From: a virus
Lineage: Duplodnaviria; Caudoviricetes
Length of the DNA: 64,000 bases
Virus record (IMG/VR): IMGVR_UViG_2716884858_000003
Coordinates: 32,001-96,000 of that record
Reading direction: 5' to 3' (one strand)
Within the stretch, counting starts at the first letter, position 1. Each line of letters starts with the position of its first letter. Positions 15,916 through 33,500 of the stretch are shown piece by piece. The translations under genes and the position numbers were made by a program. Below the pieces are notes generated by a model, which was not told the DNA's origin, searched no databases, and was given only the letters and a program-made list of their open reading frames with translations.

Positions 15916-18567
15916 TTGCAGAACAGTACAGACCGCCTGAGCGCCGTCGAGGCGCAGCTCGCCGCTCTCGTGCGCGCGGGGGACACCAAGGCCCTCCGCG
16001 CGCTGCGGGACCGCGTCAAGGCCCAGCACACCACCAAGCGCGCTCGCCGCGCCGTGCACTATTACAAGGACCCGGCCGGGTGGGCGCGGGACGCCATCGA
16101 CTGGGGCAGCGACGGCGGCCTGACGGCCTACCAGGCGGACATCCTGGGCGAGCTGCCCGCCCGCAGGCGCGTGGCCGTGCGCGGACCCCACGGCCTCGGC
16201 AAGGCGCAGCCGTACGGCCTCCTCATCGACACCCCGTCCGGGCCCCGGAAGTTCGGGGAGCTCCAGGTGGGTGACACCGTGTTCGGCTCGGACGGCCGAC
16301 CCACGTCCGTCATCGGCGTGTACGAGCGTGGCGAAATGGACGTCTACCGCGTGACGTTCGATGACGGCACCTCCACCCTGTGCTCCGCAGACCACCTCTG
16401 GACCGTCAAGCGGTTCACCTGGTCAAGGAACGCCCCCGTGGAGTGGGTGACGAAACCCCTCTCGGAGATCATGGCGGAGGGCGTCGACCGCTCGAACGGG
16501 AAGGGTCGGGCCCGTAAGTGGGCGCTGCCCACCGCGGAGCCGCTGGAGTACCCGTTTCGGTGGGTGCCCGTGGACCCGTACACCCTCGGCGCCTGGCTCG
16601 GCGACGGGTCCAGCGGTAAGGGCACGATCAGCGGCAAGGACCGGGAGGTGGCGGAACGCGTCCGGCACGCCGGGTACCACGTCGTGGAGCGGGAGACACG
16701 CACCTGCCAGGAGTGGTCCGTCTACGGCCTCGGCCCTGCCCTCCGCCGCCTCGGCCTCCTCGGCACCAACGTCCGCGCGAAGGCTGTCCCGGACGTCTAC
16801 CGCTACAACATCCCGGAGGTGCGTCGGGAAGTGCTCCGCGGCCTCCTGGACACGGACGGCACGGTCACGCCCGAGGGCACCATCACGTTCACCAGCGTCA
16901 GCCGACAGCTCGCGGATGACGTCGCCTGGCTCGCCCGCTCCCTGGCCGGTACGGCTGCCGTCCACCGCCGGGTGAAGCGGCGGGAGGGCGAGGAGCCGTA
17001 TGAGTTCTACGTCGTCCGGCTCACCCTCCCGGAGGGCCGCTGGTTCCACATCGAGCGCAAGCAGGCTCGCGTCAAGCCGGTGAGTCAGAAGCGCTACCTG
17101 TGGCGGTGGATCGCCTCCGTGGAGCACGTGGGCGCGGGGCCCGTCCGCTGCATCCAGGTCGCCGCGCCGGACGGCCTGTACGTGTGCAACGACGTCATCG
17201 TGACCCACAACACCGGCCTGGCCGCCATCACCATTCTGTGGTTCGCCACCACTAGGGAGGCGGCGGCCGTCGACTGGAAGGTCATTTGCACCGCCTCCGC
17301 CTGGAGACACCTGCAAGTTTTCTTGTTCCCGGAAGTGCACAAGTGGGCACGCCGCATTCGCTGGGACGTGCTGGGCCGAGAGCCGTTCTCGGAGCTGACG
17401 GAGCTGCTGGCGCTCAACCTCAAGCTCCACCACGGCGCCGCCTCGGCCGTCGCCTCCAATAAGGCCGAGCTGATCGAGGGCGCGCACGCGGACTCCCTCA
17501 TGTACCTCATTGATGAGGCCAAGATCGTGCCCGATGGCACGTGGGACGCCATTGAAGGCGCGTTCTCGGGCGGCCGGGACGAGGGCCTGCCCGAGTCGTT
17601 CGCCCTGGCCATCTCGACGCCGGGCCCGCCCGCCGGCCGGTTCTACGAGATCCACAAGCGCGCCCCGGGCCTCGAAGACTGGCACGTACGGCACGTGACG
17701 CTCGAGGAGGCCATCGCCGCCGGCCGCATCTCGCCCCAGTGGGCCGAGCAGCGCGCCAAGCAGTGGGGCACCGACTCCGCCATGTTCGCCAACCGCGTCC
17801 TGGGGGAGTTCCACGCCTCCGACGAGGACAGCGTCATCCCCCTCTCGTGGGTGGACGCTGCGATCGAGCGGTGGCACGAGTGGGACCAGGCCGGCCGCCC
17901 CGAGCCGGACGGCCGCCGCGTGCTGGGTGTCGACGTCGCCCGAGCCGGCGGGGACTCCACCGTCCTGGCGCACCGCTGGGGCCTGGTCGTCGCGGAGCTG
18001 GAGATCCACGACCGTGAGGACACCATGCAGACCACCGCCCGCGTCCAGGGCGCCCTGGGCGAGGAGCCCGGCGGTGCCGTCGCCGTGGTCGACTCCGTGG
18101 GAGTGGGCGGTGGCGTCATCGACCGCTCCCGGGAGCTGCGCGTGCCCGTGCTGGCCTACACCGGCGCGGCCGGGACCAAGCTGCGCACCCGCGACGGGCA
18201 GTACGGGTTCACCAACACCCGCAGCGCCGCGTACTGGAGGCTGCGGGAGCTGCTCGACCCCGCCTTCGGCGCCCGGCTCGCCCTCCCGCCGGACGACCTG
18301 CTGGTGTCCGACCTGACGACGCCGACGTGGGACATCACCACCGGGGTGCCGCCCAAGATCAAAGTGGAGCCCAAGGACGACGTGGTCGCCCGCCTCGGCC
18401 GCTCCCCGGACAGGGGCGATGCGGTGGCCATGGCCATGTACGCGGACCACCTGGCCGCGTCCAAGGTCCACGCCCCCGGCGGCCAGCGCGACGGCCGGTC
18501 CTCCCGTGCCGCTGCTCGCTACGGCCGCCCGACGACCCAGGGCCTGCCACCGTCCAAGTTCACCTAA
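15916..18567 (+). CDS. terL: Terminase large subunit containing an intein
   Basis: Walker A GPHGLGK/T split by the intein; Walker B LIDEA; ISTP; nuclease motifs LGVDVAR.GGDST and SPDRGDA. Confidence 0.9.
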   Translation: MQNSTDRLSAVEAQLAALVRAGDTKALRALRDRVKAQHTTKRARRAVHYYKDPAGWARDAIDWGSDGGLTAYQADILGELPARRRVAVRGPHGLGKAQPYGLLIDTPSGPRKFGELQVGDTVFGSDGRPTSVIGVYERGEMDVYRVTFDDGTSTLCSADHLWTVKRFTWSRNAPVEWVTKPLSEIMAEGVDRSNGKGRARKWALPTAEPLEYPFRWVPVDPYTLGAWLGDGSSGKGTISGKDREVAERVRHAGYHVVERETRTCQEWSVYGLGPALRRLGLLGTNVRAKAVPDVYRYNIPEVRREVLRGLLDTDGTVTPEGTITFTSVSRQLADDVAWLARSLAGTAAVHRRVKRREGEEPYEFYVVRLTLPEGRWFHIERKQARVKPVSQKRYLWRWIASVEHVGAGPVRCIQVAAPDGLYVCNDVIVTHNTGLAAITILWFATTREAAAVDWKVICTASAWRHLQVFLFPEVHKWARRIRWDVLGREPFSELTELLALNLKLHHGAASAVASNKAELIEGAHADSLMYLIDEAKIVPDGTWDAIEGAFSGGRDEGLPESFALAISTPGPPAGRFYEIHKRAPGLEDWHVRHVTLEEAIAAGRISPQWAEQRAKQWGTDSAMFANRVLGEFHASDEDSVIPLSWVDAAIERWHEWDQAGRPEPDGRRVLGVDVARAGGDSTVLAHRWGLVVAELEIHDREDTMQTTARVQGALGEEPGGAVAVVDSVGVGGGVIDRSRELRVPVLAYTGAAGTKLRTRDGQYGFTNTRSAAYWRLRELLDPAFGARLALPPDDLLVSDLTTPTWDITTGVPPKIKVEPKDDVVARLGRSPDRGDAVAMAMYADHLAASKVHAPGGQRDGRSSRAAARYGRPTTQGLPPSKFT
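16204..17211 (+). mobile_element. Class-3 intein (336 aa) with LAGLIDADG homing endonuclease
   Basis: Ala1 (AQP); block B DHLW; block F VRCIQV; block G VTHN followed by +1 Thr; LGAWLGDG and LRGLLDTDG. Confidence 0.88.
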
Positions 18568-18815
18568 AGCCTCGGACGCGAGACCCGGACCAGCTCCCGG
18601 GCGTCCAGCAGCTCAACAACAGGCTTGCCGACACACCTGTCGCTTGGCAAGGCTCGGGCGTGCGGCGAGGGAATTCCCCGTATGGCTGCGGCCAGCTGCA
18701 TGCCGGCGACCGGGAAGTGTTGAGGGGGCGGCTTACGGTGTAGAGGAGCGGACTCACCTCCGCTGGCGCGGAGAGCACTTCGCGACCAGGTGCCACAGGC
18801 GGATGAGTTGCGACC

Positions 18816-18837
18816 CACCTCCGCTCGAGCGGAGGTG
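18816..18837. repeat. Perfect 22-bp palindrome
   Basis: CACCTCCGCTCGAGCGGAGGTG; half-site CACCTCCGCT also at 18755. Confidence 0.6.
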
Positions 18838-18914
18838 AACCGGTCGCCGCGCGTGGCTTCTGGTCCGAAAATGAAAGGTGAGCCCAGGTCCGCGAGGTAG
18901 TGGGTGGGGTGTGT

Positions 18915-20159
18915 TCATGCGGCTTCGATGGGGTCGAAGCGGACGGTGAAGCCGAGGGCGTTGGCCTGCCGGGTGATGCGTCGCATGGCGCGTTCCGGGT
19001 TGTGCCTGGCGTAGTAGTCGCCGCCGAGGTCGTGGAAGGCGACGTTGTCGGTGAGGATGTGCCAGACAGCGGTCAGCAGGGTGTGTTCGAGGGCAACGAG
19101 GGCTTTCTTCTTGCCGAGACGGGGCACGAGGCGGTGGTAGCGGGCGCCGGGGTAGGTGCTCTTCCTGGTGTGGGAGGCGGCCATGGCGGCGGTGCCGAGC
19201 GTGGCGCCCAGCCAGCGGTTTCCGTGGCGCCGACGTCCGGACTTGTGTTTCCCGGCGGACTCATGGTGGCCAGGGCAGACCCCGGCCCACGAGGCCAGAT
19301 GGCCCGCGGTGCGGTAACGGGCCATGTCCCCGCCGGTCTCGGCGATGATGACCTCAGCGACGGCCCTGCCGACACCGGGAATGGTCTGCAGCAGCTCAAT
19401 CTGCTGGGAGAAAGGGAACATCTCGGCCTCGATCCGTGCGGACAGCTCCCCGATCGCCTCGGTGAGATGGTCGATCCGCTCCAGATGCAGCCGGCACAGG
19501 AAAGCGTGATGCTCACCGAAGTTCCCGGTCAGTGCCTCCACCAGTGCGGGGATCTTCGGCCGCATCCGGGCTTTGGCCATCCCCGCCAGGGCGTGGACAT
19601 CGCGCTCCCCCTCGATGAGCGCGTCCAGCATCGCCCGCCCGGAGACGCCCATGATGTCGGTGGCCACGCTGGAGAGCTTGATGCCCGCGTCCTCCAGCTC
19701 CTTCTCCAGGCGCTGGACTTCCCGGGACCGCTCCGCGGTCAGGCTGGCGCGGTAGCGGGTCAGATCCCGTAGGTGCCGGACCGGCTCGGGCGGCACGAAC
19801 GACGCCTTGAGCAGGCCGCATTCGCCGAGCTGGCACAACCAGGCGGCATCGGCGACGTCGGTCTTGCGGCCGGGCAGGCCCTTGGCGTGCGCGGCGTTGA
19901 CCAGGATCACGTTCAGGCAGTCCTCCAGCAGGTAGAACGCACCTCGCCAGTAGTCGCCCGTCGCTTCCAACACCACGAGGGTGACCTTCTCGGCGAGCAG
20001 CCAGTCCCGCAACTCGAGCAGGGAGTTGGTTACGGTGGCGAACGTACGGATCTCCTGCCGGCGCGAACGCCTGCCGGAAGGATTCGGGGTGCGGACGCAC
20101 GCCTTGAGGTCCTTCTTGCCGATATCCAGCGCGGCACACCGCTCATGCAGTACGTCCAC
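18915..20159 (-). CDS. IS110 DEDD recombinase, 414 aa
   Basis: ALDIGK, LEATG, KTDVAD, HESAGK; GTG start at 20159. Confidence 0.93.
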   Translation of the reverse strand: MDVLHERCAALDIGKKDLKACVRTPNPSGRRSRRQEIRTFATVTNSLLELRDWLLAEKVTLVVLEATGDYWRGAFYLLEDCLNVILVNAAHAKGLPGRKTDVADAAWLCQLGECGLLKASFVPPEPVRHLRDLTRYRASLTAERSREVQRLEKELEDAGIKLSSVATDIMGVSGRAMLDALIEGERDVHALAGMAKARMRPKIPALVEALTGNFGEHHAFLCRLHLERIDHLTEAIGELSARIEAEMFPFSQQIELLQTIPGVGRAVAEVIIAETGGDMARYRTAGHLASWAGVCPGHHESAGKHKSGRRRHGNRWLGATLGTAAMAASHTRKSTYPGARYHRLVPRLGKKKALVALEHTLLTAVWHILTDNVAFHDLGGDYYARHNPERAMRRITRQANALGFTVRFDPIEAA

Positions 20160-20189
20160 GAATCCCTCCCAGGCAACGACGTGACATGC

Positions 20190-20385
20190 CAACGGCACGC
20201 CGTCCGGAGGGACCACAGGGCTGAAGAGTCTGGTCCGCGTGCTGCCGCAACAATTGACGGTCCCTGTCAGCGATCCCCATCGCCATCCTGACACGCGAGC
20301 TCACAAGGCATCACAGTGAAACCGGCGTTCCGGACGGAGCAGACTCATTTTCCCGCCTCCACGGCGGCCCGCGCAGCGGCCTGGG
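20190..20385 (-). ncRNA. Putative bridge RNA of IS110 element 1 (approximate ends)
   Basis: Conserved non-coding region upstream of the recombinase; contains CTGGTCCG (20230) matching the element end. Confidence 0.6.
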
Positions 20386-20431
20386 TTCCTGGTCCGAAAA
20401 TAACGTCTGAGCCTCCGCTGGGCAGGCGGTG

Positions 20432-21676
20432 TCATGCGGCCTCGATGGGATCGAAGCGGACGGTGAGGCCGAGGGCGTTGGCTTGCCGGGTGATGCGGCG
20501 GAGGGCTCGTTCGGGGTCGTGCTTGGCGTAGTAGTCGCCGCCGAGGTCGTGGAAGGCGGCGTCATGGGTGAGCATGTGCCAGACCGCGGTCAGCATCGAG
20601 TGCTCCAGGGCGACCAGGGCTTTCTTCTTGCCCAGGCGGGGCATCAGACGCATGTAGCGGGCGCCGAGGTAGGTGCGATCGCGGGTGCGGGAGGCGGCCA
20701 TGGCCGCGGTGCCCAGGGCGGCGCCGAGCCACCGGTTGCCGTGTCGTCTGCGGCCGGACTTCTGTTTGCCGGCGGATTCGTGGTGGCCGGGGCAGACACC
20801 GGCCCAGGAGGCGAGGTGCCCGGCGGTGCGGAAGCGGGACATGTCGGCGCCGGTCTCCGCGATCAACACCTCCGCGACGGCCTGCCCGACTCCGGGGATG
20901 GTCTGGAGCAGCTCAACCTGGCGGGCAAAAGGGTGCATCTCCTCCTCGATCCGCGCGGAGATCTCCGCGATGGTGGCCTTGAGGTGGTCGATGCGCTCCA
21001 GGTGCAGACGGCACAGGAAGGCGTGGTGCTCGCCGAAGTTCCCGGTCAGCGCCTCCATCAGTTCGGGGATCTTGGGGCGCATGCGGGCCTTGGCCATCTG
21101 GGCCAGGGTGTGCACGTCGCGTTCCCCGTCGATGAGCGCGTCGAGCATGGCCCGGCCGGAGACGCCGAGGATGTCGGTGGCCACCGCGGAGAGCTTGATG
21201 CCTGCGTCCTCGAGTTCCTTCTCCAGCCGCTGGGCCTCGCGGCTCAGCTCGCCGGCGAGGGTGGTGCGGTAGCGGGTGAGGTCGCGCAGGTGCCGGATGG
21301 GCTCCGGCGGCACGAACGAGGCTTTCAGCAGCCCGCACTCGCCCAGCTGGCACAGCCAGGCCGCGTCCGCGACGTCCGTCTTGCGGCCGGGCAGGCCCTT
21401 GGCGTGGGCTGCGTTCACGAGGATGACGTTGAGGCAGTCCTCCAACAGGTAGAACGCGCCGCGCCAGTAGTCGCTGGTGGCCTCCATGACCACCAGGGTG
21501 ATGTTCTCCGCGACCAGCCAGTCCCGCAGCTCCAACAGGGCGTTGGTGGTGGTGGCGAAGGTTCGGATCTCCTGGCGACGGCTGCGGCGTCCGCTCGGGG
21601 AAGGGGTGCGCACGCACGCCTTGAGGTCCTTCTTGCCGATGTCCAGCGCGGCGCACCGCTCGTGCAGCACGTCCAT
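20432..21676 (-). CDS. IS110 DEDD recombinase, 414 aa
   Basis: Same motifs; close paralog of 18915-20159. Confidence 0.93.
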   Translation of the reverse strand: MDVLHERCAALDIGKKDLKACVRTPSPSGRRSRRQEIRTFATTTNALLELRDWLVAENITLVVMEATSDYWRGAFYLLEDCLNVILVNAAHAKGLPGRKTDVADAAWLCQLGECGLLKASFVPPEPIRHLRDLTRYRTTLAGELSREAQRLEKELEDAGIKLSAVATDILGVSGRAMLDALIDGERDVHTLAQMAKARMRPKIPELMEALTGNFGEHHAFLCRLHLERIDHLKATIAEISARIEEEMHPFARQVELLQTIPGVGQAVAEVLIAETGADMSRFRTAGHLASWAGVCPGHHESAGKQKSGRRRHGNRWLGAALGTAAMAASRTRDRTYLGARYMRLMPRLGKKKALVALEHSMLTAVWHMLTHDAAFHDLGGDYYAKHDPERALRRITRQANALGLTVRFDPIEAA

Positions 21677-21704
21677 GAGAGCCCTCCCCGTCTACGGCCG
21701 ACAG

Positions 21705-21900
21705 CAACAGCGTGCCGTCCGGAGGGGCCACAGGGCTGAAGAGTCTGGTCCGCGTGCTGCAGCAACAATTGACGGTTCCTGTCAGCGGCCCCCGACGCCA
21801 TACTGACGCTCGAGCTCATAGGCATCACAGATTCGCCGGCGTCCCGGACGGACACGCCCCCATTTTCCCGGCCTCACGGCGGCCGCGCAGCGGCCTGGGT
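21705..21900 (-). ncRNA. Putative bridge RNA of IS110 element 2 (approximate ends)
   Basis: Homologous to the element 1 non-coding region; CTGGTCCG at 21745 and CTGACGC at 21803. Confidence 0.6.
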
Positions 21901-21994
21901 TACTGACGCGTAAATAGATCCTGTTCAGGGTGGGTGTGGGTAGGGCTGGGCGCCCGGTGACCGTGGCGGGGCCGCCGGGTGTCCGGTTTGTCGG

Positions 21995-23239
21995 TCAGGC
22001 TGTGTTCTCCCTCGGGTTGAGGGTGACGGTGTAGCCGAGCTGGTTGAGCTGGTTGATGGCTCGGCGGGTGGCGCGTTCGGGGTCGCGTTGGGTGAAGTAG
22101 GTGCCGCCGAGCTCGTGGTAGGGGACGTTGTCGGTGAGCATGTGCCAGATCGCGGTGATGATCGAGTGCTCGACGGCGACCAGTGCCCTGAGCGGGCCGC
22201 GGCGGGCGGTCAGACGCTTGTAACGGGCCTGCAGGTAGGTGTCCTTGGTTCTCACCGCGCCGAATGCCGCGAGGCCGAGGGCGCCTTTGAGGTAGGGGTT
22301 GCCGGGCCGGACCTTGGTGTTCTTGGTGCGGCCGGCGGATTCGTGGTGGCCCGGGCAGACCCCGGCCCAGGACGCGAGGTGCTTGGCCGTCGCGAAGCGG
22401 GTCATGTCGCCGCCGGTCTCCGCGACGATCACTTCGGCGGTCGCCTGGTTGATCCCGGGGATGGTGTCGAGCAGGTCGAGGGCGTCACGAAAGGGAGCCA
22501 TCGCCTCCTCAACCCGCCCGGAGAGCTGGTCGATCATGGAGGTGAGCTGGTCGTACTGGTTCAGATGCAGGCGTGTCAGGAACGCGTGGTGCTCGCGGAA
22601 GCGTCCGGTCAGGGCCTCGGTGAGTTCGGGGATCTTGTTGCGGAGCTTGCGCTTGGCCAGGTCCGCGAGGACCTGCGGGTCGGCTTCGCCGCTGATGAGG
22701 GCTTCGAGCATGGCCCGGCCGGAGACGCCCATGATGTCGGAGGCGACCGCGGAGAGTTTGATGCCGGTGTCCTCCAGCAGTTTCTCCAGCCGCTGCACCA
22801 CGCGGGAGCGTTCGCGGGTGGCGGTGGTCCGGGCCCGGGTGAGGTCGCGTAGTTCACGGACCGGTTCGGGCGGCACGAAGGAGGGCCTCACCAGGCCGTG
22901 GGCACCGAGCTGGGCCAGCCAGGCCGCGTCCGAGACATCCGTCTTGCGGCCGGGCAGGTTCTTGACCTGCCGGGCGTTGACCAGGATCACGTTCAAGCCC
23001 TCGGACAGCACGTAGTAGAACGGCTTCCAGTAGTCCGAGGTCGCCTCGATCACCACCAGCGTCACCCGTGCGGCGAGCAGATGGTCGCGCAGGGCGAGGA
23101 CCGCGTTCGTCGTCGATCCCCACGTCGTGGTCTCGGTCGTGAAGGACCCCCGCCGCTTCGTACTCGGAGTACGGACACATGCCTTGGCGTCCTTCTTGCT
23201 GATATCGAGGCCCACGCAGCGTTCGTGCAGCACGTCCAC
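21995..23239 (-). CDS. IS110 DEDD recombinase, 414 aa
   Basis: GLDISK, IEATS, KTDVSD, HESAGR. Confidence 0.93.
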   Translation of the reverse strand: MDVLHERCVGLDISKKDAKACVRTPSTKRRGSFTTETTTWGSTTNAVLALRDHLLAARVTLVVIEATSDYWKPFYYVLSEGLNVILVNARQVKNLPGRKTDVSDAAWLAQLGAHGLVRPSFVPPEPVRELRDLTRARTTATRERSRVVQRLEKLLEDTGIKLSAVASDIMGVSGRAMLEALISGEADPQVLADLAKRKLRNKIPELTEALTGRFREHHAFLTRLHLNQYDQLTSMIDQLSGRVEEAMAPFRDALDLLDTIPGINQATAEVIVAETGGDMTRFATAKHLASWAGVCPGHHESAGRTKNTKVRPGNPYLKGALGLAAFGAVRTKDTYLQARYKRLTARRGPLRALVAVEHSIITAIWHMLTDNVPYHELGGTYFTQRDPERATRRAINQLNQLGYTVTLNPRENTA

Positions 23240-23269
23240 GGCCTTGCTCCCTCCCGTGCCGAACAGCCG

Positions 23270-23530
23270 AGTACGCCGTTCCGGGAGGGCCAGGGTGAAT
23301 CAGGAATTCTGACGCACGTGCTCACAACAACACTCCACGGTTCCCGTGGACGGCCCCCAGCACCACGCTGACCTGCGAGCTCACCGGCATCACAGAAATA
23401 TCGGTTTCGGCCGGAACGGACACCACCACGATCCCGAACGGCATCACCCCAGGTCAGGGCAGACAGAAGCACCTCCGGCGCGCACACGGGATTTACCACG
23501 CCCCCGGCGCGCACCGAAGGTGCGCTGGAT
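23270..23530 (-). ncRNA. Putative bridge RNA of IS110 element 3 (approximate ends)
   Basis: CTGACGC at 23309 equals its own end; CGCTGACCTGCGA at 23366 equals the junction at 23531. Confidence 0.6.
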
Positions 23531-23562
23531 CGCTGACCTGCGAAAAAGGGAAGCTTGAGGCA

Positions 23563-23640
23563 GGGGCGGGAAGATCGCGGACGATCCTCAAAGGACTCAT
23601 AATCCGTCGGCCGTGGGTTCGAGTCCCACCCGCCCCACCA
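23563..23640 (+). tRNA. tRNA-Ile2/Met(CAT)-derived sequence with intact 3' half and non-canonical 5' half; likely att site or pseudo-tRNA
   Basis: GGACTCATAATCC anticodon arm, GTGGGTTCGAGTCCCAC T-arm, CCGCCCCACCA end; GGGGCGG can pair as the acceptor stem but the D-arm is atypical. Confidence 0.7.
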
Positions 23641-23994
23641 CAAGCATGCCCTGGCCTGCGGAAACGTTCCTCGTCGGGTGTTGGAGCGTCAACTTCCGTC
23701 CAGCGGACGGAATCCGCTGCTCGCGTGCTTGGGGTCGTAGCGGTCTGTGGCGGTCGGCACTCCGCTGACCTGCGGGGACGTATCGATCCGCTCGTGGCCC
23801 GAGCCATCGCGGGTCGCCGGTCTGGCGACGGAACGGTGATTTGAGGACGCTGGCAGGTCGCGGGGACCGGAAGTGTCCTCGAGGGTCGGTGGGTGCGGTG
23901 TGTGCCTGCTGTGGAGCGCAAGGTGTTCCTGGCCCTACGGCAGGGCCCCGCCGCTCCTGGTGGGTGCGGCGGGGCCCGGGTGTCGGTGGTGGGG

Positions 23995-26900
23995 TCAGTG
24001 CAGTGCGCCGACCTCGGTTGCTGAGAGCGTCCGTGGGTAGACGTGGAGGTCGGCGACGGAGCCGGGGAAGGCCAGGTAGGGGCTGGTGGCTGCTGCGCTG
24101 TTGACGCAGCCGCCGATGGTCAGGGGCATGGAGGAGTCGTACTGGGGGCTGAGGTTGGTGGCGGTCCCCATGAGGGTCCCGTTTTGGTAGAGGGCCATCG
24201 AGCCGGTGCCGGACTTTCCGGCGACGGGTGCCCGGTAGGCGGCGACGAGGTGGGTCCAGGTGCCGATGGGGCCGGTGTTGGGGTCTCCTTCTGCGGTGGG
24301 GAAGTCGGAGTTCTCGTCGTTGGTGGTGGTGGTCTGGAACATCCAGGCGCCACTGGGTTTGTCGTAGGAGATGTAGAACGCCTGGTGTTGGGTGGTGCCC
24401 TGGCAGACAGCGGTGGTGCCGAGGGCTGAGTTGATCTTCACCCAGGCGGAGACGGTGTAGTCGCCGAGTGTGTTCACCGCGCTCTGCTTGCTCTTGAGGA
24501 AGCCGGTGTTCCCGTCGAAGGCGACGCTGCCGGCCATCCCGCTCGGTGCGTCGGTGCCGTAGGTGGCGCTGCCGGAAGCGGTGAACGGGTTGAGGGCGGC
24601 GGTGTCGGTCCCGCTGGTGGCGAGCTTCCATTCGTCCTCGGGCATCCCGTTGCCCCAGCCCGCCGGCACGATCACGCTGTCTGCGCCGGCCTGGTCGCTC
24701 GGCATGGCGTACGGGTAGGTGTGAACGTCGGCCACGGAGCCGGGGAAGGCGGCGTACGGCGTGGTCGCGTCGACGCTGTTGACGCAGCCGCCGATGGTCA
24801 GGGGCATGGACGAGTCGTACTGCGGGGTGACGTTGTTGGCCGTCCCCATCAGGGTGCCGTTCTGGTAGAGCGACATCACGCCCGTGCTGGAGTCGCCGTC
24901 GACCGGGGCCGTGTACGTGACCAGCAGGTGCGCCCAGGTGCCTACGGCGGCGGTGTTGCTGTCTCCCTCTGCGGTGGGGAAGTCGGCGCTGGCGTCGTTG
25001 GTGGTCGTGGTCTGGAACATCCAGCCCTTGTTGCCGCTGTCGTAGCCGATGTAGAGGGCCTGGTGCTGGCTGGTGCCCTGGCAGATGGCGGTGGCGCCGA
25101 CATCTGAATTGATCTTCACCCAGGCGGAGATGGTGTAGTCGCCGGAGGTGTTGACGGCGGTGTGGTCGCTCTCCAGGAATCCGGTGCTGCCGTCGAACGA
25201 CGCCGAGCCGGCGCCGGCGTTGACCGCGTTGGGGCCGTCGGAGCTGAAGGTCGCGCTGCCGACTGCGGTGAGCGGGTTGTCTGTGTTGCTGTCGGTGCCG
25301 TCGGTGGCCAGCTCCCAGTCGTCCTCGGGGGTGTCGCTGCCGGTGGCGAGCGGGACGATCAGGTTCGGCTTGATGTCGACCACGGTGTTGGTGTCGTTGA
25401 GGTACTGGCTGGCGAGGTCGGTGTAGTAGGCGTTGGAGGGGTTGCCGCCTGAGAGGTCGGCCGCTTTCACGGTTGAGGAGGTGGTGTTGCCGTCCGTGGA
25501 GACCGCGGCGGCGAAGTCGATGACCTGGGTGGAGAAGCTGTCGAACAGGTAGCCGTTGACCAGCTGACGTGCGGATTCCTGGGTTGCTGTGCCTGGGTGG
25601 GCGGCGGTGAAGGGCGGGATGGTGGCGAGGTAGACGGTGATGTTGGAGTTCTGGGTGATCGGATTGTTGTTGGCGTCGTAGGTCTGGCTGTCGTCGGTGT
25701 AGTACGAGCTCAGCTGGCTGTTGAGGGAGGCCAGTCCGTTCTCCACGTTGGTGGCGCAGGTTCTGGCGTCGCTGGTGCAGTTGAGGAGGTCGGCGGCGCC
25801 GGTGGAGACGAGGACGGTGCGCACGTTGCCCTGGGCCAGCACGTTGCGGTCCACGGGGTTGAGCGCGTCTTTCGGGACGACGCTGTTGGTGATCTGGGGC
25901 AGCAGGTTGTTGCTCAGGCTGGTGCTGTTGGTGCCCGCGTTGAGGACGCCGTAGTCCACGGAGTTGTCCCCGTTGGTGTCACTGACCAGAGCGTTGGTGA
26001 TGGCGTCGCTGAGGTGGTATGGGCTGTTGCTGCTGCCTGCGGTATCACCGTTGATGCTCTGGTCGCCGTAGAGGACCAGCGAGCCGGTGGGGGTGGAGGT
26101 GGGGGTGTAGCTGGGGGTGGTGACGTCGATGCCGGTGAGGTAGGGCAGACCGGTGTAGGTGGTCTGCGTGTAGTTGGTGGCGGCGGTGTCACTGGTGCGG
26201 TTGGCGGCATCGCTGGCCCAGACGGGGGTCTGGGCCACGGCGTGGCCGGGCATCGCCGACGTTGAGCCGTGCACCTGCAGGCTGATCAGGACGGTCGCCT
26301 GTTGTGTGACGGGCAGGGTCACTGGGTTGCTGGTGGCGTCGCCACCTGCCGGGATGGTGACGGAGGGGGAGGCGGGGGTGCCGAAGGTCAGCGGGGTCGG
26401 GGTTGCGGTCGCGGTGGCGCCGCCTGCTGTGGTGTCCTGCAGTGCGACGGAGGCCGCGTCGAAGGTCACCGGGGTGGTGCCCATGGCGTTGGACAGGTGG
26501 ATGCGTACGCCGTTGCCGGTGTCGGTACCGACACTGACGTGCGCTGGGATACGGAGCGTCTGCCCTGCGTTGATGCTGGCGGTGTTGCCGTTGGACTGCT
26601 GCACCTTGGCGGTGTCCTGGACCGAGGCCCAGGTGCCGACCCAGTGCTGGGGGCTTGATCCGCCGGTGAGGGTCATCGGCCGCAGGCCGAGCCCGAGGAC
26701 GTGCAGGGAGGGCTGGCCTGCCTGGACGCCGTTGGTGAACAGCGGCAGGGAGATGCTGCTGACGACCGAGCCGGGGCATTGCAGCGGGACGCTGATGGCG
26801 TAGATCTTGGGGCCGGGGCTCGGGCTGGTCTGTGTGTTGTTGCTGTGGTTCTCGTGGACCAGGCTGATGGAGGCCGCGGAGGCCGGGCCGGAGAGCCAGT

Positions 26901-29900
26901 CGGGCACGGTGTCCAGTTGGTAGGGCTGATCGAATGGGTTGTTTTGGTCCGCGCAGTTGTTCTTGGCGTAGGTGATGGTGCCGCCGGTGCCCTTGGCGGC
27001 GCCGCCGGTGGCGAAGGCGAGGAAGACCAGGGCGTCGCCGGTGTTGACCACTCCGCTGCCCGGCAGGGTGATGGTCTGGCCGGAGGCCAGCATGTTGTCG
27101 TACGTGCCGGTGCCGAACTTCGGCAGTGTGACGGTGGCGCCGTCGACGGTGACGGTCTTGTTGCTCTGCCAGCCCGACGTGCTCGTCAGGTCGGATGAGT
27201 TGATGCTGTTGCCGGAGCCGTCGGCGTCCGCTGTGCTGGTTGTGGTGGTGAAGGTGCTGGTGGCGGTGTTGTTCAGGCAGCTGCTGGTGTCGTTGATCGC
27301 GCACGTGAGTGCCGAGCCGAGGCGCAGTACGTCGATGCCGGCCTGGTAGCCGGTGGAACTGGGGTTCTTGCCGCTCAGAGTGAGGGTGAGGGTGTGTACG
27401 CCTTGTTTGAGGGTGAGCAGCTGGCCGCCGGCGTCCTTGGGGATGCCGAGGTTGAGGAACTGGGTGGTGGTGTAGGAGTTGTAGGCGTCGAAGCCGCTGA
27501 TCAGGGTGGACTGGGTGCTCTGGCCCGCGTCCAGGACCAGGCGGTAGATCCCGTAGTCCTTGCCCTTGGTCAGGTTCGCTCCGAAGCTCCAGGGGCCGTC
27601 CTTGGGGATGTCGAAGCTGAAGGTGGCGCTGTCACCGCTGATGACCTTCGAGGTGGTGCTCTTGTTGGCGAGCATGGCCTGGTAGCCGTCGGCGAAGTCG
27701 TAGCCGCTGAAGGCCGCCTGGCTGATCAGCTGGCCGCCGGTGCTGGTGGTCGTGGCCTTGGGTACGGCAGTGGTGGTGCCGTCAGTGTTGGTCGCGGTCC
27801 AGCCGCTGATCATCTTGTCGCCGTAGGCGTAGGTCGGGGTGCTGGTCCCAGCGTAGAAGACGTAGGACGTCTCGGAGAGGGACGTCGAGCCGGCCTGGTC
27901 CACCGCCTTGGCGTACAGCGTGTGAGGTCCGGCCGAGCCGGGGGCGAAAACGGGGGAGGCACTGCCGTTGAGGACCGAGGTCCCGGTGCCGGGACCGTTG
28001 TCGGACGTGGCGTAGTAGATGTTGCCCTTTGTGATTTTCGTGCTTGCTGTCAAGTGGATGACGCCGCTGCTGGTGTACACCGTGCTGGCGAGTGTGGCGT
28101 CCAGGGAGAACAGGTAGCCGGTGATGTTGTTGGTGTGGTTGTTGCCCAGGACGAAGGTGCCCTGGTCGCCGAAGGCGGCGCCGATCTGCTTGGCGGGGAA
28201 CTGACTGGAGGTCACCGTGGGGGAGGGTGGGGCGCTGGTGTCCACGGTGAAGGTCTGGGTCTTGGTCCAGATGCCGGAGCCGGGGCCGACCCAGTAGCCT
28301 GCCGCGTTCTGTGCGGTGGCCTTCCAGGTGTAGGTGCCGTCCGGCAGGTGCGGGGTTGTCCAGTCGCTGCCGTTGGTGTTGTAGCGTGCGCGTTTTTTGG
28401 AGTCGAGGTTGGGGCCGAAGCCCTGGCCCACGAGGGTGCCTGAGGAGTTGTAGACGCTGTAGTCGATGCGCACCAGCTCGCTGCCGCCGGCCAGGTCGGG
28501 GTCGACCGCGCGGGCGGACAGCGTCGGGGTGTGGGTGGTGGTCATCGTCTTGCCCGAGCTGACGATGGACGGCTTGATGGCGGGGGTACCGGTGCCGTTC
28601 TTGAGCTTGGGCCGGTAGCTGTAGGTGACCGACAGGGTGGCGCCCCCGCCGTAGGCGAGCTGCTTCCACTGGTAGGGGTCGTTCATGTCGGGCGACTGGA
28701 CCATCAGCGTCATGCTGCTCCAGCTGCCGCCCGCCGCGCTCTGGGCCCGGGAGGTGACATCGAACTCCAGCGACGGCGGGCTGACCCAGGAGTTGGACCC
28801 CTCTTTGACCGGGCAGGTGCCGGCCTCCTTGCTCTTCGGGTCGGTGCCGAGGGCGCCGGTGCGCCCGCCGGGCTCATGCCCCCAGTACAGCGAGGAGGAG
28901 TTCCATCCGGCGGGGCGGTCGGTGCCGTAGACGGCGGCCGGGGTGTCGTCGCAGGAGGCGGCGGAGAGCTGGGTCACGTACAGCGAGGCATGACTGACCA
29001 CGGCGCCCTTGATGCCGCTGGTGTTGATCTGGTAGTAGGTGCGGGCGCGCTCACCGTTGCCGGGGGCGGTGTTGTCCCATCCCTCCCGGGCGTTGGTCGC
29101 TCCGCTGGTGGACGTCGAGTTGTAGACGTTCCACCCGTTGTCGGAGATCCGGGCCCAGTCCAGCTGGGAGGGCCTGCCGCTCCACTCCGGGTCCACGTAG
29201 ACCGGGTAGGTGGTGGTCTTGGCGGTGAGCAGGGACTTGTCCAGGCCGAGCAGCTGCTTGCCGTGCTTGAGAGTCACATGCACCCGGGCACGGTGCGTGC
29301 CGACCCTGGCTGCGGCGGTGTGCTCGGCCCGCGCGGCAGAGACGGTCGCCGTCCGGGCGAGCGCCTTGCCTCCGGCCTTCTGGCCGGTGCTGTCCCACAT
29401 CAGCGCGGTGTCGCTGTGGAACACCGTCTTACCGGTCTGCTTGTCGGTGGCCTGGGCGCCGCCGTTCGCGGTGGCGGCCAGCTTGAGGTTGGCCGCAGTG
29501 GTGTTCCATGCGAGGCTTTGCAGCCGCGGATCGGCTGCGGCCTTGGGGGTCTTGACCACCAGGATCGAGGAGTAGCCGGAGGCGTCCGCGGTCAGCTGGA
29601 GGTCGACCCCGGGCAGCACCTCCGGGTAGGTGGCGGTGTCTTTGGAGATCACCGGTTTGGGGAGTGCGCCCGGCCAGGAGAAGCCCAGCTTGTCGGCCCC
29701 GTCGCGCATCGTGACCAGCGCGCCGGAGCCACCGTCGGAGAAGGCCACGTGCGTGACGGCGGCCTTGGGTGCCCAGGTCCCGTCCGGCTGCCGCACCAGG
29801 GTGGTGTCGATGGGGACCCATTTGCCTTGCTGCTGCACACGCTGGGGCATCGAGGTATCGGTCCGGGTGAAGGTGCCGTCCGGGTTGGCCACCACCTGGG

Positions 29901-30174
29901 TCCCGGTGCCGGTGAGCTGGTTGATGGTCACCGGCTGGCCGGTCGCCTTCGCCTGCGCGGACGCCGACTCCGTGGGGTTGAGGCGCCTGGCCGCGGGCTG
30001 GGCGCGGTCGCTTGGCGACGTGGCCTGGTGTGAGGAGGCCGGCGCGTCGGATGCGGCGTGGGCCGGTGCCGTGGCGGCCAGTGATCCGGCAGCCAGGGTG
30101 GCGACGACGGCGGCGGCGATCGGTCTCGACGTGGGGCGTCTGGACGCGTGCACGGTTTTGCGAGAAGCGGACAT
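23995..30174 (-). CDS. Large secreted protein (2059 aa) with Ig/FN-like regions, degenerate SGNH-like domain and two C-terminal LamG domains; RHS partner
   Basis: Signal peptide AHA-A; ANPDGTFT; YPVYVDP; duplicated YTxSAWVK...WxHL...LTIGG domains. Confidence 0.85.
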   Translation of the reverse strand: MSASRKTVHASRRPTSRPIAAAVVATLAAGSLAATAPAHAASDAPASSHQATSPSDRAQPAARRLNPTESASAQAKATGQPVTINQLTGTGTQVVANPDGTFTRTDTSMPQRVQQQGKWVPIDTTLVRQPDGTWAPKAAVTHVAFSDGGSGALVTMRDGADKLGFSWPGALPKPVISKDTATYPEVLPGVDLQLTADASGYSSILVVKTPKAAADPRLQSLAWNTTAANLKLAATANGGAQATDKQTGKTVFHSDTALMWDSTGQKAGGKALARTATVSAARAEHTAAARVGTHRARVHVTLKHGKQLLGLDKSLLTAKTTTYPVYVDPEWSGRPSQLDWARISDNGWNVYNSTSTSGATNAREGWDNTAPGNGERARTYYQINTSGIKGAVVSHASLYVTQLSAASCDDTPAAVYGTDRPAGWNSSSLYWGHEPGGRTGALGTDPKSKEAGTCPVKEGSNSWVSPPSLEFDVTSRAQSAAGGSWSSMTLMVQSPDMNDPYQWKQLAYGGGATLSVTYSYRPKLKNGTGTPAIKPSIVSSGKTMTTTHTPTLSARAVDPDLAGGSELVRIDYSVYNSSGTLVGQGFGPNLDSKKRARYNTNGSDWTTPHLPDGTYTWKATAQNAAGYWVGPGSGIWTKTQTFTVDTSAPPSPTVTSSQFPAKQIGAAFGDQGTFVLGNNHTNNITGYLFSLDATLASTVYTSSGVIHLTASTKITKGNIYYATSDNGPGTGTSVLNGSASPVFAPGSAGPHTLYAKAVDQAGSTSLSETSYVFYAGTSTPTYAYGDKMISGWTATNTDGTTTAVPKATTTSTGGQLISQAAFSGYDFADGYQAMLANKSTTSKVISGDSATFSFDIPKDGPWSFGANLTKGKDYGIYRLVLDAGQSTQSTLISGFDAYNSYTTTQFLNLGIPKDAGGQLLTLKQGVHTLTLTLSGKNPSSTGYQAGIDVLRLGSALTCAINDTSSCLNNTATSTFTTTTSTADADGSGNSINSSDLTSTSGWQSNKTVTVDGATVTLPKFGTGTYDNMLASGQTITLPGSGVVNTGDALVFLAFATGGAAKGTGGTITYAKNNCADQNNPFDQPYQLDTVPDWLSGPASAASISLVHENHSNNTQTSPSPGPKIYAISVPLQCPGSVVSSISLPLFTNGVQAGQPSLHVLGLGLRPMTLTGGSSPQHWVGTWASVQDTAKVQQSNGNTASINAGQTLRIPAHVSVGTDTGNGVRIHLSNAMGTTPVTFDAASVALQDTTAGGATATATPTPLTFGTPASPSVTIPAGGDATSNPVTLPVTQQATVLISLQVHGSTSAMPGHAVAQTPVWASDAANRTSDTAATNYTQTTYTGLPYLTGIDVTTPSYTPTSTPTGSLVLYGDQSINGDTAGSSNSPYHLSDAITNALVSDTNGDNSVDYGVLNAGTNSTSLSNNLLPQITNSVVPKDALNPVDRNVLAQGNVRTVLVSTGAADLLNCTSDARTCATNVENGLASLNSQLSSYYTDDSQTYDANNNPITQNSNITVYLATIPPFTAAHPGTATQESARQLVNGYLFDSFSTQVIDFAAAVSTDGNTTSSTVKAADLSGGNPSNAYYTDLASQYLNDTNTVVDIKPNLIVPLATGSDTPEDDWELATDGTDSNTDNPLTAVGSATFSSDGPNAVNAGAGSASFDGSTGFLESDHTAVNTSGDYTISAWVKINSDVGATAICQGTSQHQALYIGYDSGNKGWMFQTTTTNDASADFPTAEGDSNTAAVGTWAHLLVTYTAPVDGDSSTGVMSLYQNGTLMGTANNVTPQYDSSMPLTIGGCVNSVDATTPYAAFPGSVADVHTYPYAMPSDQAGADSVIVPAGWGNGMPEDEWKLATSGTDTAALNPFTASGSATYGTDAPSGMAGSVAFDGNTGFLKSKQSAVNTLGDYTVSAWVKINSALGTTAVCQGTTQHQAFYISYDKPSGAWMFQTTTTNDENSDFPTAEGDPNTGPIGTWTHLVAAYRAPVAGKSGTGSMALYQNGTLMGTATNLSPQYDSSMPLTIGGCVNSAAATSPYLAFPGSVADLHVYPRTLSATEVGALH

Positions 30175-30512: not shown

Positions 30513-33500
30513 ATGGCGGGGATTTCGGGGTGGAGACGCGGTCGGGCGGCCTGGGCTGCCCGGAGGGTTCGTCGCACGGCAGTGGTGATGGCCGGTGCCT
30601 TGGTGGTGGGCCTGCTGCCCGCCGGCGTGGCCGCGGCCACGCCGGTGAAGCCGCACGTGGCGGCTCCCGCCGCTCCGCACAACAAACGGGTTCCCTTGGC
30701 CCGGCCCTGGCCCAAGCGGAGTTCATCTCCCAAGCGGTTCAAGCACTTCGACCCCAGCGGGCACACGAAGCTCCCCTCGCCGGGCAGCGCCGTGGTGACC
30801 CTGCCCAACGCGGCTGCCTCCGCGAGCCTGAGCGCCAAGGCGGCTCAGGTACGGGCCGGAAATCTGCCTGTCCTGCTCGGTGCTGCCGCGGGCTCGCAGG
30901 CCCGGTCTGCCGCCGTCATCGGGTCGCAGCGGGTACGGGTGACGATGCTGGCCCAGACGTCCGCGCGCGCGGCCGGTGTCCACGGTGTGCTGTTCACGCT
31001 GCAGCGCACCAGCCCGGGGAGCGGGAAGGTCGCGCTGCGGGTGGACGACTCCTCGTTCCGCTACGCCTTCGGCGGTGACTTCGCCTCGCGCCTGCACTTG
31101 GTTCAGCTGCCCGCCTGTGCGCTGACCACGCCGAAGCTGGCCAAGTGTCAGGCTCAGGCCGCGGTGCGCACCACCCCCGGAACGCCGCTGACCGCCCAGG
31201 TCTCGGTGCCGGGCTCTTCCGCCGCCTCCGGCACGGGGGTCTCTCCTCGCTCGGCAACGGCTGCGTCCAGTGCGATGGTCGTCATGGCGGCGACCGCAGG
31301 CTCTTCCGGGTCATCCGGTGACTACTCGGCGACCGCTCTGTCGCCGGGCGGCTCCTGGTCGACCTCGGGGAACACCGGCGCGTTCACCTACAGCTACCCG
31401 ATCGCCGTGCCGCGGGCGATCGGCGGAGCGGCCCCGAATGTGGACCTGTCGTACAGCTCCGCCAGCCAGGACGCGCGCACCGAGGGGACGAACAATCAGC
31501 CCTCGTGGCTGGGTGACGGCTGGACCTCGACGGAGAACTACGTCGAGCGCACCTACAAGTCGTGCGACGACGACTCCTCGTCCGGCGCGCCGAAGAACGA
31601 CGGCGACGAGTGCTGGGCGGGGCAGATCCTGACCCTGTCGCTGAACGGCACCTCCACCGACATCGTCTATGACGACGCGACCAAGACCTTCCGTCCCGCC
31701 GACGACAACTCCACCACCAAGATCGAGGACCTGAGCAACGGCACGAACGGCACCAAGAACGGTGAGTACTTCAAGGTCACCGAGGGTGGCGTGCAGTACT
31801 TCTTCGGCCTCAACCGCCTGCCGGGCTGGTCCAGCGGCAAGGACGAGACGAAGTCCGTGTGGACCGTGCCGGTGTACCACGCGCACAGCGGAGTGTCCGA
31901 CTGCCCGGACAGCACCGACTTCGCCTCCACCTCCTGCACGCTGGGCTACCGCTTCAACCTGGACTACGCGGTCGACACCCACGGCAACGCCACCGCCTGG
32001 TACTACACGCCGGAGACCGGCTACTACGGCGCGGACCTGAAGGACACCGCGGTGCCCTACACCCGCGGCGGCACCCTGTCCCGCATCGACTACGGCATGA
32101 CCGCCACAACGATCTACTCCGGCACGGCGCCGGAGCAGATCGTGTTCGACGCCTCCGCCGAACGCTGCATCGCCGGCACGCCCTCCGGCAACACCTGCGC
32201 GGAAAACCAGTTCACGACCGCCAACGCCGCGTACTGGCCGGATGTGCCGATCGACCTCAACTGCACCAAGGACTCCACCACCTGTACCAACCACGGCCCG
32301 AGCTTCTGGTCGCGCAAGCGCCTGACGTCGATCACCACCCAGATCCAGACCGGCGGGGCGACCCAGCAGGTCGACAAGTACAGCTTCATCCAGTCCTTCC
32401 CCGACGGCGGCGACCACGCCCCCACTCTGTGGCTGGACTCCATCCAGCACACCGGCCTGGACACTCTCGGCGGTGCATCGGGCAGCACCTCCACACCGGC
32501 AGTGAACTTCGACCCACCGCTGCAGCTGCCCAACCGGGTCGGAACCATCCCGCAGATGCCGCTGATGTACCACGACCGCATCCAGACGGTCACCAGCGAG
32601 ACCGGCGCCCAGACCACCGTCACCTACGACCGTCCCAACTGCTCCAGCGCCCCGGCCAGTGACCCCAACGACCCGACGGACGCGGCCGCCCGGACCTTCG
32701 CGTCGACCAACACACTGTCGTGCTTCCCGGTGTATTGGACGCCCGACGGGCAGCCGGCGCCGTGGATGGACTGGTTCTACAAGTACAAGGTCACCGCAGT
32801 CGTCACCGAAGATAAGCACAACTCCTATCAGGACGGCACCGAGCCCAAGCTGGAGACGGACTACGCCTACAAGGGCAGCCCCGGCTGGCACTACGACGAC
32901 AACGAGGTCGTCAAGGCCAAGTACCGCACCTGGGGACAGTTCCGGGGCTACCCGGAGGTAGACGTCACTACCGGTGACCCCAGTGTGTTCCACCTGACCG
33001 ACGGCGCCAACGTCTACGACCAGAAAACCCTGAGTAAGACCTACTACTTCCTGGGCATGAACGGCGACACTCTGCCCGGCGGGAAGACCCGCTCGGTGCC
33101 GGCGCTGACCAGCCAGGACGGTGCGACCTCCGTCGCGGACGACAAGGCGCTGGCCGGGCAGGTCTTCGAGACCGACACCTACGCCAGCGCCACCGGCAGC
33201 CTGAATGCAGCCACCGTCACCGTGCCCACGATCATCGGGCCCACGGCCTCCCGGTCCCGCAGCGGCCTGCCGGACCTCACAGGGCAGATGGTCCGCACCG
33301 TCAAAAGCCTCACCCGGCAGGTGGTCTCCTCCGGCTGGCGCAAGACCGAGACCGACACCTTCTACAACACCACCCTGGGCAAGCCGACGACCGGCATGCC
33401 CGTCCAGGCCGACGACCGCGGCGAGACCGCAGCCAGCGACAACGTCACCAGCTGCACGTACAACCGCTACGTCACCGGCAGCGTGGACACCCTCGTACTG

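Follow-up and report, generated by a model that had tools for sequence, protein, structure and literature searches.

The DNA analysed here is a 64,000-nt window (the whole stretch of DNA that was analysed) of a 114,478-base contig, which is listed as a virus record (IMGVR_UViG_2716884858_000003; Duplodnaviria; Caudoviricetes) and is Streptomyces phage-like. Between positions 18860 and 23534, on the minus strand, the window carries three intact insertion sequence (IS) elements of the IS110 family, which are arranged head to tail and are denominated here, in gene sense, IS3, IS2 and IS1. There is zero spacer between the units and every junction contains one shared CT (+ strand; AG in gene sense), at 18860, 20389, 21903 and 23533, just as an earlier note, made from the letters of the stretch alone, had described it. 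At the DNA level IS1 and IS2 are 82.0% identical and IS3 shares 70.9% and 68.4% with either of them, figures which lie below the at least 95% by which adjacent same-strand units are recognised as a tandem duplication; at the protein level IS2 is 87% and IS3 62% identical to IS1. No further copies beyond the three were found elsewhere in the contig. Our analysis makes it probable that the locus is a pile-up in which three different IS110-family elements inserted one after another, guided by RNA, at a single original site.

All three open reading frames (ORFs) encode recombinases with the DEDD RuvC-like and Tnp domains that define the IS110 family (PF01548, DEDD_Tnp_IS110, 72.5-97.6 bits with a cut-off of 29; PF02371, Transposase_20, 75.1-79.9 bits with a cut-off of 21.3). 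The ends agree with this assignment, as both carry the same core dinucleotide and show neither terminal inverted repeats nor a longer target duplication. Left ends start with (G/T)AACCCAGG or CGATCCAGCG and right ends close with ATTTTCGGACCAG or TATTTACGCGTCAG, and the crossover lies somewhere inside the shared CAG or GTCAG. In both groups of elements distinguished below the right ends keep a stretch ATTT(T/A)CG 7-13 bases before the core (e.g. 18868-18876, 20397-20405, 21911-21917), which falls outside the pairing range of the donor guide; one might speculate that it is a -10-like box or a protein contact.

An assembly artefact is an unlikely source of the train because contigs of public soil/rhizosphere runs bridge two of the junctions. 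In detail, the IS2/IS1 junction is covered by X1 record 5 (20241-20553, 0 differences) and the IS3/IS2 junction by X3 record 17 (21776-22000, 5 differences); run X1 may be the sample of origin. In addition, contigs of X2 and X3 match the right end of IS2 with 0 differences and then continue into flanks unlike those of the window, so that near-identical IS2 copies exist at other sites, suggesting, as far as such contigs can tell, that IS2 has been mobile recently.

For the comparison with related elements, one genome per species was scanned, which gave 170 pattern matches, of which 137 were confirmed and the best 80 kept; 79 loci were returned. The final set comprises the 73 elements in which both anchors described below are found (70 from the related loci and the three of the window), and it divides into group A (IS1/IS2-like, 37 rows) and group B (IS3-like, 36 rows). 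The group B relatives L031-L079 share both ends with IS3, the left one starting with CGATCCAGCGCACC and the right one closing with TATTTACGCGTCAG. A loose anchor pattern applied to extra genome regions returned mostly noise, and from it we used L132 and one clear element of L129. With the transposase setting the orientation, the flanks of the left and right ends are abbreviated LT and RT, and the first and last bases of the element RD and LD, respectively.

The non-coding regions of these 73 elements share two anchors, a first one (CUGUGAUGCC..GAGCUCG, also GUGAUGCC..GAGCUCG) and a second one (GUUGC..AGCACG), each with a variable slot behind it. The two slots are both built as N8-AG-N2, the first reading the LT flank and the second the element's own right terminus (LD); the target slot thereby consists of 8 nt for the left flank, the core and 2 nt which equal the first two bases of the element. 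The words that the earlier note had singled out in the train were all found again (CTGGTCCG at 20230 and 21745, CTGACGC at 23309 and 21803, CGCTGACCTGCGA at 23366 and 23531, CTGACACG at 20288). Its statements that one slot repeats the element's own end, and that IS1 and IS2 have a donor end in common, hold as well, as both of these elements possess the right terminus CGGACCAG and the same donor guide.

The correspondence between slots and flanks extends throughout the relatives. Over 54 unique element/flank combinations, the target slot agrees with the real LT at 273/324 non-core positions, compared with a mean of 207.6 and a maximum of 229 in permutations which keep the make-up of each column but not the relatedness among elements (0/10,000). 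When U.G and G.T pairs to the bottom strand are admitted, the count rises to 296/324 against 244.2, and when the 16 distinct guide types are taken as units it is 89/96 against 68.4 (0/10,000). The N2 after the target slot equals the first two bases of the element at 83/86 positions (39.0 expected; 0/10,000), and the donor slot equals the real LD at 49/54 positions (36.4 expected; 5/10,000). Group B guide types include CAGGUCAG, CUGGUCAG and CACGACAG, group A pairs of guide and flank are UCGGUCAG with CCGGTCAG, UGGACCAG with CGGACCAG and UAGACCAG with CAGACCAG, and in L077, an unrelated pair of group A, guide CAAACGAG equals flank CAAACGAG. A third, short segment, i.e. the six bases 5' of CU-GUGAUGCC, is complementary to the start of RT above expectation; in group B three of its bases match at 50/75 positions against 38.2 (within-group permutation, 0/5000), with AGTCA in L037 versus AGTCG in L046 as a covarying pair. 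The flanks of other copies, whose comparison with the slots the earlier note had proposed as a check, thus follow the target slot, and the collected figures support the view that the two variable slots behave as putative bridge-RNA guides, one for the terminus of the element itself and one for the target beside it.

The second check proposed there, folding and covariation, also came out positively. RNAalifold, run on 61 distinct non-coding sequences, gave a stem which encloses the donor slot (columns 79-86/146-154) and in which pair types are exchanged, e.g. GC 31 / AU 18 / GU 12 and GC 50 / AU 9. An inner hairpin (88-93/97-102) varies in the same manner (CG 47 / UA 10, CG 30 / GC 27, GC 30 / AU 19), and there are two small paralogous hairpins, each of which is continuous with the beginning of a long guide. 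A long-range stem of CCGUCCGG with CCGGACGG (group A; group B adds U on one side and A on the other) had to be checked apart from RNAalifold because the offset between A and B in the alignment hid it; it forms a perfect 8-bp duplex in 60 of the 61 sequences. The region upstream of the gene is therefore structured and holds both a target and a donor loop, with left-arm guides and covarying stems, while the right-target guide is short and weaker. No curated Rfam match was obtained over the non-coding regions (cmscan of 18000-24500, E <= 1), the weak hits lying only on the tRNA-like fragment described below.

Within the train, the guide of IS3, CGCAGGUC-AG-CG, is identical to its own left junction (23531-23542) over 12 bases, and the match extends upstream by one more base to 13, so that the earlier reading of this slot as a copy of the occupied site stands. 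The target guide of IS2 equals an IS3-type terminus, as had been proposed, and being set to the end of another IS110 element turns out to be a recurrent habit of the IS1/IS2 lineage. For IS1, a mismatch between its slot and the neighbouring IS2 had been pointed out: CGUGUCAG is indeed identical to the IS2 terminus CGGACCAG at 5/8 positions only, but the mismatch largely dissolves once wobbles are allowed, since 7/8 positions then pair (two wobbles), and against the IS3 terminus CGCGTCAG all 8/8 pair with one U.G wobble.

Stacking is also found in relatives in other actinobacterial genomes. Another IS110 transposase lies directly upstream on the same strand in 20 of the 32 assessable group A elements, compared with 0/28 in group B; in five more group A rows the upstream part is too short or contains runs of N. 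Three other Streptomyces assemblies contain the nearest relatives of IS1 (L001-L003, 91-92% DNA identity), each of which stands directly after an IS3-like right end. L003 shows a compensating change, with flank CGTGTCAG and guide CGUGUCAG, and L002 combines flank CGCGTCAG with guide CGCGUCAG. The phenomenon is most extensive in the metagenome-assembled actinobacterial genome G003 (L016-L022), where 30 of 51 IS110 DEDD matches stand in same-strand chains with a spacing of 900-2000 bp; these form 14 chains, two of them triple, which mix distant IS110 lineages (44-79% identity to IS1; e.g. L129 = C6:389000-396500). Chained DEDD matches in the four other genomes searched amount to 2/16, 0/5, 2/16 and 0/18.

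A different type of tandem was observed in L132 (G004:C5:348500-355000), where two tandem copies of one group A element lie at ~1580 and ~3240 with identical guide regions. The right terminus of the first copy, CGGACCAG, is the target-guide word of this type, whereas its own donor guide specifies CGGGUCAG.

The sequence of events that we propose begins with IS3 (group B), which would have inserted at its cognate site TTTTTCGCAGGTCAG/AAGCC, a motif that is found beside tRNA-Met and attachment (att) sites; the single empty site would have had the form ...GGCTT-CT-GACCTGCG..... This insertion would create a junction composed of the right terminus TATTTACGCGTCAG and the old right flank, with which a group A target guide, CG[U/C]GUCAG or AGCGUCAG, could pair. 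Since the guide pairs with the terminus and recognition of the right flank would be short and permissive, a resident IS3-type right junction should be a good group A target, and IS1 and IS2 would have entered there one after the other to give IS3-IS2-IS1. IS3 is placed at the start because IS1 and IS2 depend on its terminus or on each other's. The remaining two may have arrived in either order, which we rate as about equal. In the one case, IS1 would have entered at the right junction of IS3 and IS2 later between them, both driven by the target loop; this would need IS2 to accept G as the first base of the right flank, whereas its short guide and the donor-side N2 predict A. In the other, IS2 would have come before IS1, which then used the right junction of IS2 by a donor-arm half-match or by a wobble-tolerant target guide. 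The first base of the right flank and the wobble counts point in opposite directions here. We infer that the RNA is transcribed and taken up by the recombinase and that insertion proceeds via circles, as in IS621.

Several observations weigh against this reading of the locus. The permutations overstate the independence of the elements, for which reason the type-level test and L077 are the more telling results. The short right-target guide is weak in group A, where two bases match at 23/56 positions against 14.6 (34/5000), and it misfits IS1 and its relatives at the first position. The N2 of the donor slot does not track RT (45/116 against 44.5 expected), and a right donor arm guide (RDG) beyond N2 was not seen when the parts 5' of the donor-loop hairpin and 3' of the donor guide were inspected by eye, with no systematic covariation scan. 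The IS2 terminus on the left of IS1 fits the donor guide of IS1 (8/8) better than its target guide, and at least one step may for that reason not have been driven by the target loop. Among the relatives, the IS3-like element upstream in L001 is a 376-bp 3' remnant only, and L006 and L008 carry only ~15 nt of the IS3-type terminus (TATTTACGCGTCAG) without an upstream transposase match; further upstream IS3 homology was not found in L008. An empty site in a related phage was likewise not found, as the 16-base pre-insertion word occurs in 17 viral contigs, none with the flanks of the window, and the single original site is therefore deduced from the logic of the guides.

In run X6, an IS2-like copy follows the same ~15-nt stretch of terminus. 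The remnant of L001 and the short stretches of L006 and L008 imply that the target is strictly the terminal sequence and not another IS as such. The plasmid collection contained 13 records with single IS3-like or IS2-like copies, none of which spans an IS3/IS2-type junction, and in BLAST searches with both flanks of the train the sole match was the TurkishDelight terminase.

In the parts adjoining the donor guide just mentioned, no segment complementary to the first bases of the element was seen in either group, nor one following left-end bases 3-6. Bases 3-6 of the group B left end vary (CGATCC, CGACTC, CGAACC, CAGCGC, CAACGC etc.; L031-L079, window 23527-23532) among otherwise near-identical elements, whereas bases 1-2 are held by the N2 of the guide; this free variation fits the absence of pairing there.

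An alternative that we regard as possible, although rather unlikely as an explanation of the locus as a whole, is that the units were stacked by donor-arm half-matches, in which the donor loop of an incoming circle reads the resident LD like its own while the target loop is uninvolved. Such a mechanism has been proposed for tandem IS110 expansions (10.64898/2026.08.14.744561; 10.64898/2026.08.31.748434), and half-match insertion including LD-only events has been reported for IS621 (10.64898/2026.08.31.748434), as have LD-only matches at tandem-unit boundaries (10.64898/2026.08.14.744561). When the 13 distinct combinations at train junctions are compared, it is the donor guide to which the upstream terminus corresponds better in 3 of them. 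These comprise IS1, whose left flank is identical to the donor guide at 8/8 and to the target guide at 5/8 positions, and likewise L004, L011 and L029. Stacking by half-matches fails, however, in 8 combinations (IS2 after IS3, L001-L003, L016-L022, L025, L026, L028, L075), in which 5-6/8 positions are identical to the donor guide and 7-8/8 to the target guide; in the remaining 2 both fit equally. Moreover, it leaves unexplained why the target guides of group A as a class equal the terminus of group B.

Tandem duplication with later divergence of the copies, or homologous recombination among copies at separate places, would dispense with targeted insertion altogether, and L132 with its two tandem copies of one element type could be taken as an example. 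For the locus itself such an origin appears highly improbable, as the units are 82% and ~70% identical and differ in ends and guides, as they meet exactly end to end at the shared core, and as contigs of other runs match the IS2 right end with 0 differences before entering different flanks. In addition, IS1 has closer relatives in L001-L003, and the left-end region of IS3 is practically the same as that of L042, L054 and L056. A composite transposing unit, made up of the whole train or of a part of it (IS2+IS1; a remnant of IS3 with a group A element), might also have arrived in one event, since the right terminus and donor guide shared by IS1 and IS2 mean that a circle with the left end of IS2 and the right end of IS1 would present a normal donor junction. 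In G003, 6/7 copies of one element carry the same upstream IS110, and ISPpu9 has been described as making several kinds of circles (PMC13626964). We nevertheless consider composite arrival improbable: a second copy of any pair from the train was not found, L001-L003 combine IS3-like and IS1-like elements without IS2 at four different right flanks, and the contig of the window holds only the three copies. Serial guided insertion thus remains the explanation that we prefer.

The positions of the elements, their parts and the sites around them are compiled in Table 1.

Table 1. Features of the IS110 train and its flank; positions refer to the window, and junctions are written with slashes around the core.
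Feature	Position	Strand	Remarks
Junction	18860	+	...ggctt/CT/ggtccg
IS1, IS110-family group A element	18860..20390	-	1529 bp
IS1 transposase, 414 aa, intact	18915..20159	-	GTG start at 20159; Pfam domains
IS1 putative donor guide CGGACCAG-AC	20228..20237	-	equals own right terminus 18860-18867 and IS2 terminus
IS1 putative target guide CGUGUCAG-GA	20286..20295	-	pairing with IS3 and IS2 termini
Junction	20389	+	...gggttc/CT/ggtccg
IS2, IS110-family group A element	20389..21904	-	1514 bp
IS2 transposase, 414 aa, intact	20432..21676	-	Pfam domains
IS2 putative donor guide CGGACCAG-AC	21743..21752	-	equals own right terminus 20389-20396
IS2 putative target guide AGCGUCAG-UA	21801..21810	-	7/8 versus IS3 terminus CGCGTCAG, plus own first bases TA
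Junction	21903	+	...gggtta/CT/gacgcg
IS3, IS110-family group B element	21903..23534	-	1630 bp between CT cores 21903-04 and 23533-34
IS3 transposase/bridge recombinase, 414 aa, intact	21995..23239	-	PF01548 97.6 bits, PF02371 75.1 bits
IS3 left-end non-coding region, bridge-RNA-like scaffold	23240..23532	-	conserved anchors and covarying stems
IS3 putative donor guide UGCGUCAG-AA	23307..23316	-	matches own right terminus CGCGTCAG at 21903-21910
IS3 putative target guide CGCAGGUC-AG-CG (RNA sense)	23366..23377	-	identical to junction 23531-23542
IS3 candidate short right-target guide AUAUUU-CU	23394..23401	-	directly 5' of GUGAUGCC; group B permutation support; 2/6 first bases match own right flank
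Junction	23533	+	...ggatcg/CT/gacctgcg
Att-like tRNA-Met fragment	23563..23640	+	ARAGORN call; 30 bp from IS3 left junction
Unoccupied one-mismatch copy CGCAGGCCAG	23651..23660	-	just past tRNA 3' end
Unoccupied exact IS3 target word CGCAGGTCAG	23765..23774	-	

Beside the left junction of IS3 ARAGORN calls a tRNA-Met, which was rejected as a working gene after comparison with 31 viral-contig loci (L098-L128) that share the last 24 bases of the fragment. The genuine gene differs in its 5' half: agreement of 23563-23640 with a genuine Streptomyces tRNA-Met is limited to the 3' ~46 nt, while the 5' half is unrelated and common to L122-L124. Since only the 3' part equals the genuine tRNA-Met, this stretch looks like an att-type fragment, i.e. 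the att site of an integrative element; Rfam gives it a sub-threshold match to transfer-messenger RNA (26.6 bits, cut-off 47). Directly behind the tRNA many of the 31 loci carry TTCTGACCTGCGGAAAC or a similar motif, which is reverse-complementary to the IS3 target. Its general type, (A)GAAAC(C/G)TTCT(G/C/T)ACC(T/A)GCG(G)AAAC, follows the 3' end of tRNA-Met and often forms a small hairpin (CGTTTC..GAAACG). In the window, copies of the motif flank the att-like fragment at 23533-23549, 23651-23667 and 23765-23781. The earlier statement that TGACCTGC recurs in the window therefore needs some restriction: the exact 10-mer CGCAGGTCAG occurs three times (IS3 guide, occupied junction, empty site at 23765) and 24 matches are found with one mismatch allowed against 10.6 expected, but the exact copies are confined to ~400 bp around the fragment. 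The copy CGCAGGCCAG at 23651 has the same relative position as, and a similar flank to, a site which is filled by an IS3-like element in L071.

A further recurrent flank was encountered in L063, where an IS3-like left junction is immediately preceded, at 1150-1201, by the right end of a second IS3-like element in inverted orientation and by the right flank of that element, AGTCAAGCT. AGTCAAGCT recurs at group B loci L033, L036, L037, L041 and L051 (L051 and L033 partial, where contigs end) and at group A locus L006, suggesting that it is a repeated host or mobile target.

To the left of the train, an 883-aa ORF (15916-18567, +), probably a large terminase that bears an intein, contains a LAGLIDADG_3 domain at residues 301-362 and shows, over part of its DNA, 77% identity with the terminase gene of Streptomyces phage TurkishDelight. 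At 18812-18833 (+), about 30 bp short of the first junction, stands a perfect 22-bp palindrome, CACCTCCGCTCGAGCGGAGGTG, of which a related half-copy occurs at ~18746-18770; the palindrome may represent a repeat or a terminator behind the terminase gene. On the other side there are two very long ORFs, one at 23995-30174 (-; 2059 aa), which ends in a Laminin_G_3/concanavalin-like domain, and one at 30513-37250 (+; 2245 aa).

The junctions inside the train had been thought to mimic circle junctions and thereby to switch on expression. The IS2/IS1 junction does match the predicted IS1 circle junction over the 14 terminal right-end bases compared and is, because of this identity, a standing donor-like site over those bases. 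An expression switch found no support, as a consensus scan found 0 sigma-70-like promoter sites in 18700-23700, which is a weak test for a high-G+C actinomycete.

Bridge recombinases of the IS621/IS110 group which use a bridge RNA were reportedly described by Durrant and by Hiraizumi in 2024. In IS621, two loops read the LT-RD and LD-RT junctions, and handshake dinucleotides follow the right guides on the 3' side (PMC13626964). A single matching arm is enough for IS621 to insert, and its right-target guide natively measures only 4 bp (10.64898/2026.08.31.748434). The elements studied here resemble IS621 in the DEDD and Tnp recombinase, the non-coding region upstream of the gene, the 2-nt core at both ends and the absence of inverted repeats, as well as in having two paralogous guide loops (target and donor), in which the left-flank arm and the right terminus are the long dominant arms, and in a dinucleotide beside the core complement that reads the other substrate. 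An IS621-type architecture in the strict sense (left-target guide, right-target guide, handshake; CT core) was, however, not found. The core is AG and not CT in gene sense; the long guides N8-AG-N2 have the form of the IS621 right guide with its handshake, yet they read LT and LD; and the short right-target segment lies 5' of the long guide, whereas in IS621 a position of the left-target guide has the number 53 and positions of the right-target guide the numbers 74-76 (PMC13626964). When the CT frame (+ strand of the window, as in the earlier note) is used instead, the guide order agrees with that of IS621 and the cassette of RNA and recombinase is inverted; the strand that receives the first cut would decide between the two descriptions. 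Members of the superfamily are known to differ in layout, as the guide order has been described as reversed between IS1111-type and IS110-type RNAs in the seekRNA paper (PMC11187229).

With the tandem IS110 expansions of the 2026 preprints, the train has in common the repeated insertion into an occupied locus, the lack of target immunity and boundary matches of the LD type, and the IS1 step may be exactly such a half-match expansion. Those arrays consist of copies which are at least 95% identical and rely on the resident's own donor arm, while in the window different lineages (82% and ~70%) are combined and in most related trains the target guide of the incomer matches the terminus of the resident. 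IS1111-group elements, which belong to the same superfamily, also use a conserved piece of another mobile element as their site, but they form another subgroup, have their non-coding region downstream and possess subterminal inverted repeats, and their prey is a transposon inverted repeat or attC and not the terminus of a sister IS110, which does not give rise to head-to-tail trains. Insertion of ISPpu9/ISPpu10 and of IS621 into repetitive extragenic palindromic (REP) sequences is similar in that a guide-matched target is a multi-copy genomic repeat; there it is a host repeat, here it is an IS terminus for group A and a tRNA-Met/att motif for IS3. Bridge RNAs, the programmability of guides, half-match insertion and tandem IS110 modules are already in print or preprint (PMC13626964; 10.64898/2026.08.31.748434; 10.64898/2026.08.14.744561). 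A heterologous IS110 train formed through a target guide that matches a sister terminus was not found in the literature, although supplements, especially that of 10.64898/2026.08.14.744561, may hold such a case, and the guide layout seen here was not found described in the main texts covered, supplements lying outside this coverage.

On a wider and more tentative view, the group A lineage could be a hyper-parasite of insertion sequences, with target loops set to the right termini of sister IS110 elements and residents serving as safe landing pads. Networks of mutual end-targeting would then build trains of 2-3 or more units, whose internal junctions would be permanent donor-like sites and could yield multi-element circles and read-through expression of guide RNA. 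Recognition would be almost wholly left-armed (8 nt, core and 2 nt), i.e. a natural half-site programming whose layout is a permutation of that in IS621.

Genome writers that can be programmed are being developed from bridge recombinases, and the rules by which natural ones accept their sites matter in this context. Together with its 70 relatives the locus constitutes a natural series of reprogrammed guides on one scaffold, with 16 types of target guide, each with a known flank, in which tolerance of wobbles and bulges is visible and specificity rests on one long arm and two bases. The 4.7 kb of intact stacked insertion sequences beside a phage-like att region are unusual, and the internal junctions of such trains are ready-made donor sites in a chromosome or phage which could drive deletions, inversions and composite mobilisation. 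The ecological rule suggested by these observations is that the terminus of one IS110 lineage is the landing site of another, which would explain heterologous IS110 trains that fall outside the duplication and half-match model of the recent preprints.

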